A stretch of 25,076 nucleotides of DNA from Acidimicrobiia bacterium (lineage in GTDB: Bacteria > Actinomycetota > Acidimicrobiia > Acidimicrobiales > Poriferisodalaceae): the NCBI GenBank assembly GCA_026983855.1, contig JALSTE010000019.1, positions 1 to 25,076 of the forward strand. The letters run 5' to 3'. This document shows positions 8,200 through 16,232 of this stretch, in pieces (position 1 is the stretch's first letter; the number at the start of each line of letters is the position of its first letter). The translations under genes and the position numbers were made by a program. The notes under the pieces are model-generated. The model was not told the origin of the DNA. It saw nothing but the letters and a program-made list of their open reading frames with translations, and did no database searches.

Positions 8200-8332
8200 C
8201 CGCCCCTGAACAGTTACCGCCGAGGTCGCGGACGGTCGGGGATCGATTCCTAACAATGGGTCCGATCGCGGCCGACTCGAACCCCAGGTGTGGACCGCTG
8301 ACGGCCACCCGCCGCCTAGCCTGAGGAACGTC

Positions 8333-9847
8333 ATGAGTACAGCCAACGACAGCCCCGAGGACACGGGAAACCACCCGGGGAACAAGCTCTACGAACGCCC
8401 CACCTGGGTGGGCAGCGACCGGCGAATGGCCCGCTACGTGGCCCGGCCGGTGCTGAACTTCATCCACCTCGAGGTGGCCAGCGGGGTCCTGCTGCTGGCG
8501 GCCACGGCCGCCGCCCTGATCTGGGCCAACTCCCCGTGGGGCCACACCTACCACGAGTTCTGGGGATCGGTCTTCGAACTCAGGGTGGGATCCTGGAAGC
8601 TGGAGATGAACCTCGAGGAGTTCGTCAACGATGCCCTCATGGCCCTGTTCTTCTTCGTGGTCGGACTGGAGATCAAGCGTGAGCGGGTCACCGGCGAACT
8701 GAAGGACACCCGTACGGCGGCCCTGCCGGCCCTGGCCGCCCTGGGGGGGATGATCGTCCCGGCCGTCATCTACTTCAGCTTCAACGCCGGAGGTCCCGGG
8801 GCGGGGGGCTGGGGCATCCCGATGGCCACCGACATCGCCTTCGCCGTGGGGGTGGTGGCCCTCCTCGGCTCGCGGGTGTCCCCCCGTCTGAAGTTGTTCC
8901 TGTTGACCCTGGCGATAGTGGACGACATCGGCGCCATCGCGGTGATCGCCATCTTCTACAGCGATGGCCTGGACTTCGTGTGGTTGGGCGTGGCGGCCGC
9001 CGCCCTGCTGCTGACCCGGTATCTGACCAGGTCGGGTGTGTGGGCCACCGCCATCTACGCCGTGATCGGTGTGGTCGCCTGGTACGCCATGTTCCGATCG
9101 GGCGTGCACGCCACCATCGCCGGGGTGAGTCTGGGGCTCCTGGCCCCGGCCAAGCCCCTGCTGAGCCGGGAGCAGGCCGAGGACCTGGCCGACGAGCTGC
9201 CCGAGGACCCCGAGCCCGAGGAGATCCGCCACATGGCGTTTCTCCTGCGGGAGCGGATCCCGGTGGGTCAGCGCCTGGAGACCCTGCTGCACCCATTCAC
9301 CAGCTTCATCATCATCCCCATCTTCGCTCTGGCCAACGCCGGTATAGAGCTCAGTGGGTCGGCCTTCTCCGACGCCATCTCCTCACCGGTCACCCACGGT
9401 GTGGTCCTGGGTCTGGTCGTGGGCAAGCCCGTGGGTATCACCCTGTTCAGCTTCATCGGGACCCGCTTGGGACTGCGTCTGCCCAAGGGGGTCACCTGGC
9501 TGCAGTTCATCGGCATGGGGGCGGCGGCCGGTATCGGTTTCACCGTGTCCATCTTCGTGACCGGGTTGGCGTTCCCCGACAGCATCGTCAACCAGGACGA
9601 GGCCAAGATCGGGATCCTGGCCGCCTCCTTCATCGCCTCGTTGATCGGCATGGCCATGCTGTCCCGCAAGGACGTTCCACCGGGGGTCACCGAGTTCGAT
9701 GACGAGGAGCCGGCGGGGACCCCGGTTCCAGCGGCGGCATCGGGTGGTCGTCAAGCCGTGCCCCAGCCCGACGGACCACCTTCGGCTCCCCGGGACATCG
9801 CCGATTCGGAGAGGGTCGGTCCCCCGAACATGGCCCCCAAGGTCTGA
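8333..9847 (+). CDS. nhaA: Na+/H+ antiporter NhaA
   Basis: Motifs VNDALMALFFFVVGLEIKRE, GWGIPMATDIAFA, LAIVDDIGAI (catalytic DD), SGVHATIAG, VGKPVGI and GIGFTVSIF. A GAGGA SD precedes ATG 8333. Pro/Ala-rich C-terminal tail. Confidence 0.95.
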   Translation: MSTANDSPEDTGNHPGNKLYERPTWVGSDRRMARYVARPVLNFIHLEVASGVLLLAATAAALIWANSPWGHTYHEFWGSVFELRVGSWKLEMNLEEFVNDALMALFFFVVGLEIKRERVTGELKDTRTAALPALAALGGMIVPAVIYFSFNAGGPGAGGWGIPMATDIAFAVGVVALLGSRVSPRLKLFLLTLAIVDDIGAIAVIAIFYSDGLDFVWLGVAAAALLLTRYLTRSGVWATAIYAVIGVVAWYAMFRSGVHATIAGVSLGLLAPAKPLLSREQAEDLADELPEDPEPEEIRHMAFLLRERIPVGQRLETLLHPFTSFIIIPIFALANAGIELSGSAFSDAISSPVTHGVVLGLVVGKPVGITLFSFIGTRLGLRLPKGVTWLQFIGMGAAAGIGFTVSIFVTGLAFPDSIVNQDEAKIGILAASFIASLIGMAMLSRKDVPPGVTEFDDEEPAGTPVPAAASGGRQAVPQPDGPPSAPRDIADSERVGPPNMAPKV

Positions 9848-9950: not shown

Positions 9951-9995
9951 CCGGTTCAGGTCACACCGGCTCAGGTCACATCGGCTCAGGTCATA
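9951..9995. repeat. Three tandem 15-bp imperfect repeats spanning the acyl-CoA dehydrogenase stop codon
   Basis: CCGGTTCAGGTCACA / CCGGCTCAGGTCACA / TCGGCTCAGGTCATA. Confidence 0.85.
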
Positions 9996-11215
9996 CGGAA
10001 GTCGGGATCGTGTTTCTTGATCTCCCGGCGGGCGATGGTCATCTTGTGCACCTCGTCGGGACCGTCGGCCAACCTCAGGGTGCGTTGGTGGGCGTACATG
10101 TTGGCCAGGGGCGTGTCCTGGGAGACCCCCATGGCCCCGTGCACCTGGATGGCCCGGTCGAGGACCTTGAGCGAGAGGTTCGGCGCCGCCACCTTGATGG
10201 CGGATATCTCGGTGGCCGCACCACGGTTGCCGACCGTGTCCATCATGTACGCGGCCTTCAGGCACAGCAGCCGCACCTGGTCGATCTCGATGCGGGCCTC
10301 GGCGATCCAGTTCTGGATGACACCCTGCTGGGCCACCGTCTTGCCGAAGGGTTCGCGGACCAGGGCCCGGTCGATCATCAGACCCAGGGCCCTCTCGGCC
10401 ACCCCGATCGAGCGCATGCAGTGGTGGATCCGTCCCGGACCGAGGCGGGCCTGGGACATGGCGAAACCCCCGCCCTCCTCTCCCAGTAGATAGTCCACCG
10501 GGACCCGGCAGTCGGTGAAGCGGACCTCGGGGTGACCACCGCGGTCCTCGTACCCGAACACCTTCATGGTGCGGACGATCTCCACCCCCGGGTGGTCCCT
10601 GGGCACGAGGATCATCGACTGCTGACGGTGGCGACTGGCCTCGGGATCGGTCTTGCCCATCACGATGAACACCTTGCAGCGCTCGCCCTCGGCCCCGGAG
10701 ATGAACCACTTGCGACCGTTGATGACGTACTCGTCGCCCTCGCGCACCATCGAGGTCTGGATGTTGGTGGCGTCGGAGCTGGCCACGTCGGGTTCGGTCA
10801 TGGCGAACGAAGAGCGGATCTCGCTCTCCAGGAGTGGGTACAGCCATCTCTCCTTCTGCTCGGGGGTGCCGAACAGGTGCAGGAGCTCCATGTTCCCCGT
10901 GTCGGGGGCCGCACAGTTGAACACCTCCGAGGCGAAGGACACCTTGCCCAGTTCCTCGGCCACGTAGGCGTAGTCGACGTTACTGAGACGGGTTCCCGGC
11001 TCATCGGGATTCAGGTGGGGCAGGAACATGTTCCACAGGCCCTTCTCGTGGGCCTTGGCCTTCAACTCCTCGAGTATGGGGGGGAAGGCGTGGGGGCTCC
11101 CCGCCTCGCGGAGCTGGTCCCTGAAGGTGTCCTCGTTGGGGTAGATGTGCTCGGCCATGAACTCCCGGACCTGTTCCAGGAGGGCCTGTCCTTCCGGGCT
11201 CGGGCTGAGTTCCAT
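9986..11215 (-). CDS. Acyl-CoA dehydrogenase (ACAD10/11-like FadE family)
   Basis: 409 aa from MELSPSPEG (ATG 11215, SD AGGGGGA). Motifs [54 protein letters not shown] and [10 protein letters not shown]. Confidence 0.93.
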
Positions 11216-11325
11216 GTGATTCCCCCTGTGGTGGACGAGGACTGTTCCCTGGTCGGTCAACCTAGCCCCGTCCCCCGTTCGGGCACCAAGTTCGGGTGGG
11301 CGTCACCGGTCCGCGGCGGTCAGGG

Positions 11326-11355
11326 TTGAACCACGGTGGGTGGGGGGCGTAGCTT
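11326..11355 (+). promoter_or_regulatory. Putative housekeeping-sigma promoter of hppA
   Basis: TTGAAC (11326-11331), N18, TAGCTT (11350-11355). The predicted TSS is about 11361-11362. Confidence 0.6.
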
Positions 11356-11360
11356 TGCTG

Positions 11361-11424
11361 GGTCCCGGTGCCCCACCGCAGTAGGTCGCGCCCCGGGACC
11401 CCACCGCCGTCCGGTGGGTTCTTC
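11361..11424 (+). promoter_or_regulatory. Structured 5' leader of hppA (candidate riboswitch/attenuator)
   Basis: Stem GGTCCCGG (11361-11368) / CCGGGACC (11393-11400), followed by hairpin CCCACCG (11400-11406) / CGGTGGG (11412-11418) and TTCTTC. A second CCCACCG (11372-11378) sits in the first loop. Confidence 0.4.
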
Positions 11425-11443
11425 ACCGTCAAGAGAGGATCCC

Positions 11444-13555
<2,112 letters not shown>

Positions 13556-13606: not shown

Positions 13607-13755
13607 GCCGCGTTTGACGTGGCCGGGGAGGCGATCATCCCGAGGTCCGCGGGCATCGGGTCGGGGTTCGGCGGTGGGCCGCGGTGCTCCGGCGTGGCAG
13701 GCTGATCGGGCCGGACCCCGATTGGGGTACACGAGCGGACGCCGAAGGGGGAGAG

Positions 13756-14565
13756 ATGAGTGGTTTCGATCCAGGGGGTGCCCGGGTGCTGGTCACCGGG
13801 GCCTCCCGGGGTATCGGTGAGGCCATCGCCAGGGAGTTCGCCGCCGGCGGCTCCGAGGTGGTGCTGGCCGCCCGGTCCGAGGACCGGATCGGGGAACTGG
13901 CCCGGGAACTGGGAGGACACGCCTTTCCCCTCGACGTGTCCGATCCCGATCGGCTGTCGGGTTTCGTCGACAGGGTGGAGGCGCAGGTGGGCCCGCTCGA
14001 CGTGTTGGTGAACAACGCCGGGGTGGAGTCCAGCCACTACCTGGAGAGGACCGACGAGAGCGAGATCTCGCGCATCGTGGCCATCAACCTGGTGGCGCCC
14101 ATGAGGCTGTCCCGCCAGGTCCTGCCCGGGATGGTCGACCGTGGGCGGGGTCGAATCGTGAACATCTCCTCCCTGGCGGCCATGACGCCGACCCCGGGGC
14201 TGGTTGTCTACGGGGCGACCAAGGCCGGACTCACCCAGTTCTCCGACGGTCTGCGCTTCGAGCTGAAGGGCTCGGGGGTGGGGGTCACCGTCGCCCACCT
14301 GGGTCCAATCGACACCGAGATGTGGGACAAGGTCGTGGACATCAAGGGTCTCGACGCCGCCCAGGCCCGCCTGCGGCGCATGGGGTTGCTGGTCACGGTG
14401 AGCCCGTCGAAGGTGGCCCGGGACGTGGTGAGGGCGGTGAGGGACGGCCGGCGCGAGATCCGGCATCCGAAGCGGCTGTGGTCGAACATGGCCCTGGCCG
14501 CCTCTCCCAAGAGGATCACCGAGGCCCTGCTCGCCGGGTTCGATCCCCGCCCCTACGTCGATTGA
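13756..14565 (+). CDS. Short-chain dehydrogenase/reductase (classical SDR)
   Basis: 269 aa from ATG 13756 (SD GGGGGAG). TGASRGIG, LVNNAG, IVNISS and YGATK (YxxxK) motifs. Confidence 0.93.
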   Translation: MSGFDPGGARVLVTGASRGIGEAIAREFAAGGSEVVLAARSEDRIGELARELGGHAFPLDVSDPDRLSGFVDRVEAQVGPLDVLVNNAGVESSHYLERTDESEISRIVAINLVAPMRLSRQVLPGMVDRGRGRIVNISSLAAMTPTPGLVVYGATKAGLTQFSDGLRFELKGSGVGVTVAHLGPIDTEMWDKVVDIKGLDAAQARLRRMGLLVTVSPSKVARDVVRAVRDGRREIRHPKRLWSNMALAASPKRITEALLAGFDPRPYVD

Positions 14566-14801: not shown

Positions 14802-16232
14802 GTGAGACACGGGATCGCACGGAAACTGATGGTGGCCATCCTGGCCACGGTCACGGCGGTGTTCATATTCGCCAACCCCGTAGGGGCGCAGACCGCCGAC
14901 ACCCAGTACGTCCTGGACAACCTGTGGGTGTTCACGGCCGGGGTGCTGGTCTTCTTCATGCAGGCCGGGTTCGCGCTGGTCGAGGCGGGAATGACCCGGG
15001 CCAAGAACGTGTCCAACATCATGGCCAAGAACATCGCCGACGCCGGGGTCGGGATCCTGGCCTTCTGGGCGGTCGGTTTCGCCTTCGCCTACGGCGGCGA
15101 CCACTGGTTGATCGGCACCAGCCGGTTCTTCCTGTCGGGGGAGAGTCTCTTCGGGTTCACCCAGGGGCTGAGCCCGGCCACGGAGTTCTTCTTCCAGTCG
15201 GTGTTCGCCGCCACCGCGGTCACCATCGCCTCGGGGGCCATGGCCGAGAGAACCAAGTTCTCCTCCTACATAGCGTTCAGCCTGCTGATGACCGCCGTGA
15301 TCTACCCGGTGGCGGTCCACTGGACCTGGGGCGGGGGGCTGGTGTCCCGCATCAACATCATGGGGGCGACGTACTCGGACTTCGCCGGCTCCTCGGTGGT
15401 GCACGGTGTGGGCGGCATGGCGGCCCTGGTGGGGGCCTGGAAGCTCGGTCCCCGGATCGGTCGGTACAACGAGGACGGCTCGGTCAACGAGATACCGGGG
15501 CATTCGATGGCCCTGGCCGTGCTGGGTGTGTTCATCCTGTGGTTCGGCTGGTTCGGGTTCAACCCGGGTTCGGAGCTGGCCGCCGATGACTTCGTGGTGT
15601 TCGTGGCTGTGAACACCCTCCTGGCCGCCTGTGCCGGGATGGTCGCCGCCACCGCCCTCAACTGGTACCGGACCGGTGTTCCCAGTATCGCCATGGCCGC
15701 CAACGGCACCCTGGCCGGCCTGGTGGCGATAACCGCCGGGGCCGGAACCGTGAACACCTTCGGGGCGGTCAGCATCGGATTCCTCGCCGGACTCCTGGTG
15801 GTGCTGGCCATCGCCTTCTTCGACCGCATCCGCATCGACGATCCGGTCAGCGCCATCTCCGTCCACGGTGTGTGCGGAGCGTGGGGAACGCTGGCCATCG
15901 GTCTGTTCGCCCGCTACGACGACGCCTTCCTGGGTCGGGACAACGCCGGGCTCTTCTACGGGGGAGGGGTGGCCCAGCTCATCGTTCAGGCCCTGGTCGT
16001 GCTGATCCTGTTCAGCTTCGCCGCCGGCGCCTCATGGGTGGTGTTCACCGCCATCGACCGTCTGATGGGGCTGAGGGTTCCCGCCGAGGACGAGGTCATC
16101 GGTCTGGACATAACCGAGCACGGTGGTCCCGGCTATTCCCTCGACCAGACCGTCCTGGGACTGGGGGCCCCGGCCACCACCGTGGCCACGACGATCAGCC
16201 TGGAGACCCAGGAGACGCTCACCGTCACCTGA
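14802..16232 (+). CDS. amtB: Ammonium transporter (Amt family) with predicted N-terminal signal peptide
   Basis: FFMQAGFALVEAG, FFFQSVFAATAVTIASGAMAERT, DFAGSSVVHGVGG, WFGWFGFNPGS and DDPVSAISVHG motifs (twin-His pore). SD GGAGAGGGAG. Confidence 0.95.
   Translation: MRHGIARKLMVAILATVTAVFIFANPVGAQTADTQYVLDNLWVFTAGVLVFFMQAGFALVEAGMTRAKNVSNIMAKNIADAGVGILAFWAVGFAFAYGGDHWLIGTSRFFLSGESLFGFTQGLSPATEFFFQSVFAATAVTIASGAMAERTKFSSYIAFSLLMTAVIYPVAVHWTWGGGLVSRINIMGATYSDFAGSSVVHGVGGMAALVGAWKLGPRIGRYNEDGSVNEIPGHSMALAVLGVFILWFGWFGFNPGSELAADDFVVFVAVNTLLAACAGMVAATALNWYRTGVPSIAMAANGTLAGLVAITAGAGTVNTFGAVSIGFLAGLLVVLAIAFFDRIRIDDPVSAISVHGVCGAWGTLAIGLFARYDDAFLGRDNAGLFYGGGVAQLIVQALVVLILFSFAAGASWVVFTAIDRLMGLRVPAEDEVIGLDITEHGGPGYSLDQTVLGLGAPATTVATTISLETQETLTVT

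Follow-up and report, generated by a model that had tools for sequence, protein, structure and literature searches.

The 25,076-nt stretch analyzed here (the window) is contig C19 of an Acidimicrobiales MAG of 821 contigs and 68.8% GC. It carries hppA, which encodes a membrane pyrophosphatase (Table 1); enzymes of this class couple the hydrolysis of pyrophosphate (PPi) to the export of Na+ or H+. The hppA product matched PF03030 end to end in a Pfam search (E = 6e-257), passed the NCBIfam equivalog NF001960 for sodium-translocating pyrophosphatases with 894 bits against a cut-off of 546, and contains GNTTAA at residue 481 and DLFESY at residue 230, which we take to be the K+-dependent and Na+-type signatures of membrane pyrophosphatases. 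Because the equivalog cut-off is passed and both signatures are present, it is fair to read HppA as a K+-dependent, Na+-type enzyme with Na+ pumping as a predicted activity, in agreement with the initial annotation, which had named the downstream gene a Na+-pumping pyrophosphatase. The N terminus aligns with all family orthologues, and the start codon is the GTG at 11444.

An intergenic gap of 225 nt separates hppA from a divergent acyl-CoA dehydrogenase gene. Elsewhere in the neighborhood, a gene for an NhaA-type Na+/H+ antiporter (8288-9847) lies on the same strand 1.6 kb upstream of hppA, and a short-chain dehydrogenase gene (13684-14565) followed by an Amt ammonium transporter gene (14802-16232) lies on its 3' side. 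No regulator gene adjoins hppA in the window, its neighbors being the acyl-CoA dehydrogenase, short-chain dehydrogenase, and Amt transporter genes.

Table 1. Features of the hppA locus in the window and examples of the leader motif of sister genera (G001 is the reference relative described in the text; L-numbers denote other leader sequences)
Feature	Position	Strand	Basis or remark
Acyl-CoA dehydrogenase gene, divergent, start at 11218	9986..11218	-	Pfam
Acyl-CoA dehydrogenase upstream region, conserved	11219 to about 11291		Gapped alignment with G001
-35-like hexamer TTGAAC	11326..11331	+	Read from sequence; hexamer and preceding 6 nt identical in G001 (12/12)
-10-like hexamer TAGCTT	11350..11355	+	18-nt spacer from -35; hexamer and next 4 nt identical in G001
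Stem-loop 1	11361..11400	+	8-bp stem, 24-nt loop, weaker inner pairs
C-rich box copy 1, CCCCACCGC, inside loop 1	11371..11379	+	Proposed antiterminator or pseudoknot strand
Hairpin 2	11400..11418	+	7-bp stem, loop CCGTC
Pyrimidine-rich linker TTCTTCACCGTCA, 13 nt	11419..11431	+	Weak U-tract or partial anti-SD
Shine-Dalgarno (SD) region AGAGAGGA	11432..11439	+	12 nt up to the start codon identical in G001
hppA, membrane pyrophosphatase gene, 703 aa, GTG start	11444..13555	+	PF03030, NF001960, sequence signatures
Sister-genus leader motif (four examples, with 21 more)	L192:60-132 (-), L011:3589-3661 (-), L008:1428-1500, L202:57-129 (-)

The initial annotation had proposed a promoter of the form TTGAAC-N18-TAGCTT; both hexamers and the spacer are present, and transcription of hppA probably starts near 11361-11363 from a housekeeping-type actinobacterial promoter, a start site predicted from these elements. 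A simple consensus scanner called neither a promoter nor a terminator in the leader region. With this start site, the leader ahead of the start codon would be about 83 nt long. Beginning 6 nt after the -10-like hexamer, the arm GGTCCCGG (11361-11368) pairs with CCGGGACC (11393-11400) to form the perfect 8-bp stem, closed by a 24-nt loop, that had been described. Hairpin 2 pairs CCCACCG (11400-11406) with CGGTGGG (11412-11418) and has C11400 in common with stem 1. Folded alone, the two elements reach -23.7 and -11.6 kcal/mol, respectively. The linker opens with TTCTTC (11419-11424) and then runs seven bases to the SD region, also as first reported. The exact copy of CCCACCG noticed in loop 1 (11372-11378) proved to lie within a longer 9-nt direct repeat, CCCCACCGC (11371-11379 and 11399-11407), the second copy of which includes the 5' arm of hairpin 2; in the minimum free energy (MFE) structure, most of copy 1 is taken up by inner pairs of stem-loop 1.

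Two further arrangements were considered and rejected. Sequestration of the SD by the UCUUC tract (11420-24 with 11435-39) appeared in the short-context MFE structure only; in a longer-context fold the SD pairs instead with codons 4-6, and two of the UCUUC-SD pairs are lost in G001. A leader peptide would have to begin at the GTG at 11368, the one start codon within the leader, which has no SD and is too distant from the predicted start site for leaderless translation.

Conservation of the leader within the genus

The reference relative G001 (record DRKF01000341, isolate HyVt-434) is another species of the genus (g1), with an HppA 97% identical to that of the window and the same divergent acyl-CoA dehydrogenase neighbor (96% amino acid identity). 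A scan of genome and metagenome contigs with HppA returned, besides G001, nothing between 97% and 83% identity, and a protein search found four more genus-level HppA proteins (P0002, P0004, P0005, and P0006). One of these, the 97%-identical P0006, is annotated 37 residues too long, and its N-terminal extension reads the codons of the leader. The evidence on this leader type consists of two full sequences (window and G001) and one codon-level inference (P0006).

Over the 83 nt of the leader, G001 agrees with the window at 74 positions (89%), compared with 67% identity at the four-fold degenerate sites of hppA, 145 of which differ among 440. In the promoter, 12 of 12 positions are shared across the -35 element with its flank, 10 of 11 across the -10 element with its flank, and 12 of 18 in the spacer. 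A gapped alignment of the whole intergenic region shows both ends conserved around an unalignable center with a 23-nt indel. Because the leader is 89% identical against 67% at four-fold sites, the whole of it is, on this comparison, under purifying selection, diverging about three times more slowly than those sites and evidently functional as sequence. At the other end of the gap, the ~70 nt beside the acyl-CoA dehydrogenase start (11219-11291) are about 88% identical to G001, with TTGACC in reverse complement at about 11257-11262; they probably serve as promoter and leader of the dehydrogenase gene itself.

The nine leader changes in G001 fall in loop 1 (two), the 3' arm of stem 1 (two), loop 2 (two), and the linker (three, at 11423-11425), and none of them breaks a pair. 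Both stem 1 changes are C to T (11394 and 11399), each turning a G-C into a G-U pair, and hairpin 2 has an unchanged stem with CC replaced by TT in its loop. RNAalifold, run on the two species, kept both hairpins and counted zero compensatory double changes, so that the covariation by which the initial annotation proposed to judge the leader did not appear within the genus. The inferred P0006 codons point the same way for the fold: G-P-G and P-R-D-P fit the arms of stem 1, and T-H-R-H-P-V-V is compatible with a hairpin 2 that would have a third 5-nt loop and lack its outermost pair. Loop 1 itself is identical at 22 of 24 positions in G001, as conserved as the stems.

Conservation in orthologous leaders, the other expectation attached to the original proposal, held within the genus (89%) and failed beyond it, where leader sequences are unrelated despite proteins that are ~82% identical.

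Chance expectation and database searches

Over positions 11358-11450 the MFE is -40.8 kcal/mol (z = -1.77), a value equaled or bettered by 9 of 200 shuffles. Perfect hairpins with 7 bp or more and a 3-8-nt loop number 5,533 in the genome, or roughly one in every 1.3 kb of strand. The stem 1 arrangement GGTCCCG-N3-40-CGGGACC occurs 43 times against about 33 expected, and the CCCACCG palindrome of hairpin 2 occurs at 4 sites, near expectation. Neither hairpin is remarkable taken alone; because both are conserved in the sister species, both rise above chance. No second copy of the leader was found in the source genome, and a regulon of the hairpin was discarded as an idea on that result and on the chance frequency of the stem 1 words and the CCCACCG palindrome. 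A look-alike on contig C792, with the same stem and a GCCCCACCG loop box between two divergent ORFs, was likewise set aside, as a chance occurrence, since it is not conserved at the orthologous locus of G001.

These numbers bear on the simplest alternative, that the leader has no specific function, its hairpins being chance products of GC-rich sequence and its conservation a consequence of genome closeness or of promoter and ribosome-binding-site constraints. The modest z score of -1.77, the abundance of such hairpins at 68.8% GC, and the unconserved C792 look-alike are all what this alternative predicts. It is harder to square with a leader that changes at a third of the rate of four-fold sites and is also slower to change than the promoter spacer, with nine changes that leave every pair intact, and with the recurrence of related stems in genus g4. 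We consider it quite improbable.

A search of the whole window against Rfam 15 at gathering thresholds, which covered the Na+ (DUF1646), Li+ (nhaA-I/II), and fluoride (crcB) riboswitches, gave no match. The initial annotation had been unable to fit the leader to any of those models by eye, and the covariance-model scan bears it out. A permissive search of 11200-11520 (E up to 10) returned only two microRNA models, at 15 bits against thresholds of 80-85, with a best E value of 2.3. No relevant account connecting a riboswitch or leader with hppA turned up in a literature search.

The proposed switch

The leader had been read at first as a compact switch, in which CGGUGGG pairs in a mutually exclusive manner either with the adjacent arm of a terminator-like hairpin or with the CCCACCG copy in loop 1. 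The loop copy, however, reads CACACCG in G001 and is a still weaker match in P0006, where the box inferred from the over-extended ORF is GCC-GAR-CC. Its first three positions are CCC in the window, CAC in G001 (11373 = A), and CGA in P0006, which makes it the least conserved part of loop 1, and the predicted duplex with CGGUGGG weakens from -12.5 kcal/mol in the window to -7.5 in G001. Because this copy, the sole basis of the switch, is not conserved, the idea fails to gain support. Competition by an antiterminator fares no better on energetic grounds, since its nested form requires stem 1 to be melted and reaches only -32.6 kcal/mol, about 9 kcal/mol less stable than the two-hairpin fold at -41.9. 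The topology would allow an H-type pseudoknot that leaves stem 1 intact (loops of 3, 14, and 11 nt), but conservation lends it no support. Conserved unpaired nucleotides, covarying helices, and distant carriers, the hallmarks of riboswitches, were not found here, the sequence being kept only in genus g1. On the sequences compared, the CCCACCG element is not conserved, and a new riboswitch seems unlikely. What survives of the original reading is a promoter-proximal, constrained, structured leader of ~83 nt without an Rfam match; the switch element does not.

The terminator-like character assigned to hairpin 2 was also not borne out. By the criterion of a GC-rich hairpin directly followed by a U-tract of at least 5 U in 8, the tail TTCTTCAC, with only 4 T in 8, falls below the scanner threshold; the G001 tail, TTCTGTTC, has 5 T in 8. 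Genome-wide, tails of at least 4 T follow perfect hairpins 103 times, compared with 135 expected from base composition, and 20 kb of the window contains 6 terminator-like sites against a shuffle mean of 6.1. Since T-rich tails are not enriched and terminator-like sites occur at the shuffle level, the source organism shows no sign of canonical hairpin plus U-tract terminators.

An attenuator governed in trans, by a protein, a small RNA, or ribosome or RNA polymerase kinetics, would do without the loop copy: RNA polymerase would halt or pause at hairpin 2 and its U-rich tail, short of hppA, unless formation of the hairpin were prevented. The hairpin 2 stem is invariant and its loop variable in the two sequenced members of the genus, with P0006 compatible apart from the outermost pair, and the tails, at 4 of 8 in the window and 5 of 8 in G001, are T-rich for a genome in which the base frequency is 0.156. 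Yet the window's tail is under the threshold, such tails are unenriched, the window's terminator-like sites stand at the shuffle level, and there is neither a conserved alternative pairing (the nested antiterminator having the energetic handicap given above) nor a plausible leader peptide, the GTG at 11368 having no SD. We regard attenuation as unlikely.

hppA leaders across the family

The gene itself is nearly universal in the family, present in all but one of 78 other genomes. Upstream regions were collected from about 60 family genomes and from contig collections. Although the HppA proteins are about 82% identical, these leaders cannot be aligned with that of the window; promoter and GC-rich hairpins recur, and the sequence does not. 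Of the 31 leaders scanned, 28 have TTGNNN-N17/18-TANNNT at 75-100 nt before hppA, and in 27 of these 28 with a recognizable promoter the first predicted pair falls 6-9 nt after the -10 element, a count made without a shuffled control and thus suggestive only. GC-rich RNA pairs early in any case. In most family leaders, GAGAGGA or GTGAGGA stands at the same distance from the hppA start. The GGTCCCG/CGGGACC stem was also found in hppA leaders of genus g4 (L006, L016, and L037) and in L045, with other loops and at a different position in the leader. Taken together, members of the family consistently have a structured hppA leader of about 75-100 nt close to its promoter.

Several other upstream arrangements were observed. 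Ilumatobacteraceae hppA leaders (L056, L073, L170, L128, L063, L065, L062, and L127) share a TAGCCT- or TAACCT-like box about 60-75 nt upstream. After the box comes CCGCCGACCATCATGGTCC, within which lies the 13-bp palindrome GACCATCATGGTC; a variable hairpin and CGTATCGCCCTCAGGAGGC come next. With a center of 1 nt, the palindrome looks more like a DNA operator than an RNA hairpin. In L112 (1-681, +), a gene for a DtxR/IdeR/MntR-family metalloregulator (PF01325, PF02742, and a FeoA domain) ends a few tens of nucleotides before hppA on the same strand, an arrangement that hints at a connection of the pyrophosphatase with metal sensing in several more distant Actinomycetota. Similar same-strand coding ends occur upstream of hppA in L045, L043, L116, L117, L071, and L189; the Pfam check covered L112. 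One Poriferisodalaceae hppA leader (L211 = G042:C1, about 100 nt before hppA; L091) contains tandem repeats of ~21-22 nt of the type ACTATCACTCCACCGATTACTCC. Apart from hppA, a ~65-nt unit that includes the apparent start region of a membrane-protein gene (L235:1260-1800, G001:C159; alignment A3) occurs three times in tandem in G001 and once in G000.

Control of hppA by a DNA-binding protein must be weighed for the window as well. In that case the perfect 7-5-7 palindrome at 11400-11418, perhaps together with the 8-bp repeat at 11361-11400, would act as an operator, and a factor bound at about +40 to +58 would block elongation or initiation. Invariant half-sites around a spacer of variable sequence and fixed length are typical of operators, and here the half-sites are invariant while the 5-bp spacer varies in sequence, not length, in three relatives; the stems are conserved rather than covarying; and protein control of hppA is indicated elsewhere by the DtxR-family gene before hppA in other Actinomycetota and the 13-bp palindrome at the Ilumatobacteraceae start site. 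The stem 1 changes in G001 nevertheless keep RNA pairing, through G-U, at the expense of DNA symmetry, the 24-bp gap between the half-sites of stem 1 is atypical, the palindrome is about as frequent as expected (4 sites), and the window has no regulator gene adjoining hppA. An operator here is, in our estimate, decidedly unlikely.

A leader motif in seven sister genera

A different motif emerged from the leaders of sister genera. In 25 distinct hppA leaders, an invariant C-rich box, YCRGCCC, lies in a hairpin loop and is complementary to GGGCUGA, located 4-5 nt upstream of the SD; the stem bearing the C-box differs completely between lineages. The nine proposed C-box/G-box pairs are formed in 92% of cells, with covariation in the form of G-U, A-U, and G-C alternating at one pair and U-A versus C-G at another. 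For the whole 19-pair structure, 83% of cells pair, a share that falls to 22-46% once the 3' partners are shifted by 1-3 columns, and the first hairpin covaries as well (GGUGC/GCACC versus GGCGC/GCGCC). The motif is not listed in Rfam.

A covariance model built from the 25 leaders (model R1; alignments A1 and A2) found one strong match per genome in 28 of 79 family genomes, representing 7 genera, each match abutting the hppA start, and found none in 147 genomes from 82 other families of the order. The motif is a candidate pseudoknotted cis-regulatory RNA. With E up to 10, R1 matched neither the window leader nor those of G001 (L002) and genus g4, and in the window's own genome it gave chance-level matches only. 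The window leader was rejected as a member of the motif, R1 giving it no score.

The two leader types have the same gene, a similar promoter and leader length, and a first hairpin at the 5' end, and each presents, in a hairpin loop, a C-rich box with complementarity to a G-rich box that precedes the SD. They differ in the boxes themselves (CCCACCG/CGGUGGG in the window and YCRGCCC/GGGCUGA in the sister genera) and in the distance from G-box to SD (14 nt versus 4-5 nt), and the window G-box, unlike that of the sister genera, has a second, adjacent partner with which it forms a local hairpin.

Two alternatives draw on this resemblance. The window leader could be the genus's version of an undescribed cis-regulatory RNA family of Poriferisodalaceae-like Acidimicrobiales, in which a loop C-box competes or pseudoknots with a G-box near the ribosome-binding site in response to an ion, PPi, or a trans-acting factor. 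Were this so, the duplicated C-box of the window would make it a true two-state switch, but we hold the proposition to be highly doubtful. The narrower version, the small ion- or PPi-responsive riboswitch first proposed, in which ligand would shift CGGUGGG between the adjacent CCCACCG and the loop copy by pseudoknot or antiterminator, finds encouragement in the 7-nt complementarity of the window and the feasible H-type topology, in purifying selection on the whole leader including loop 1, in the broadly similar layout conserved in seven sister genera, and in the kind of gene served, since hppA encodes a Na+ pump and nhaA lies 1.6 kb from it. Known cation riboswitches control genes of this Na+-pump and cation-transport class. 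Aptamers are normally conserved across wide phylogenetic distances, and this leader has no sequence conservation beyond its genus, no compensatory changes, no match to R1, and no Rfam match at gathering thresholds (only the microRNA models, best E = 2.3, at permissive ones), and its loop copy, the part of loop 1 that varies most, starts with CCC, CAC, or CGA depending on the relative. We put the probability of such a riboswitch very low.

The sister-genus motif is the better experimental candidate of the two leaders. Because family leaders are structured and an unlisted motif is found in seven genera, it is possible that post-transcriptional control of the hppA ion pump is a recurring theme.

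A working interpretation of the leader

Our preferred reading, which we advance tentatively and short of even confidence, is that the hppA leader is a genus-specific structured 5' untranslated region with a stabilizing or translation-tuning role, the first hairpin sitting at the 5' terminus and the second tying up the adjacent segment. The very start of the transcript would be a GC-rich stem-loop of 40 nt, with a hairpin of 19 nt immediately behind it; the pyrimidine-rich linker of 13 nt and the ribosome-binding site would complete the leader. The stem-loop at the 5' end may protect the mRNA against RNase E, RNase J, or RppH-type pathways of decay that depend on that end, and the two hairpins, by locking up G/C-rich sequence, may give the ribosome-binding site a defined accessibility. 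Such a role would most likely be constitutive. The start site, in vivo folding, and the stabilizing or translation-tuning effect are what we infer from sequence and predicted structure, and stem 1 would not be 5' terminal if transcription started upstream of 11355 or downstream of 11368.

A plain stabilizer has no need of a conserved loop. Because the 24-nt loop 1 is as conserved as the stems, its conservation hints at recognition by some partner. If the leader only stabilizes the message, it would be ordinary, one more example of its kind from an uncultured, sponge- and vent-associated actinobacterial lineage.

Comparison with known systems

Like the leaders controlled by the Na+ (DUF1646), Li+ (nhaA-I), and fluoride (crcB) riboswitches, the window leader precedes a gene for a cation-translocating membrane protein; unlike them, it has no Rfam match or shared consensus and is conserved only within one genus. 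It resembles attenuators and riboswitch expression platforms in two respects: a GC-rich hairpin leads into a pyrimidine-rich stretch immediately before the ribosome-binding site, and a sequence further upstream could pair with the 3' arm of that hairpin. It departs from them in its weak U-tract (4 of 8), its unconserved competing strand, an antiterminator ~9 kcal/mol less stable than the two-hairpin fold, and a genome in which canonical terminators are not enriched.

Stem-loops at the 5' terminus are established mRNA stabilizers that protect from 5'-end-dependent decay (Emory, Bouvet and Belasco 1992, as cited in PMC3997798). A stabilizer of this type should begin within about 0-4 nt of the transcript's 5' end; stem 1 begins 6 nt after the -10-like hexamer. 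The host in the present case is an uncultured Acidimicrobiales MAG, in contrast to the E. coli systems, the start site is predicted from sequence alone, and loop 1 of the window is conserved within the genus, which a pure stabilizer would not require. The E. coli ompA and papA stabilizers are nonetheless like the predicted hppA leader in placing a stable hairpin at or within a few nucleotides of the 5' end of a long-leader mRNA and, like hppA leaders, do so without a conserved ligand pocket; across the family, the promoter-adjacent position is kept while the sequence changes.
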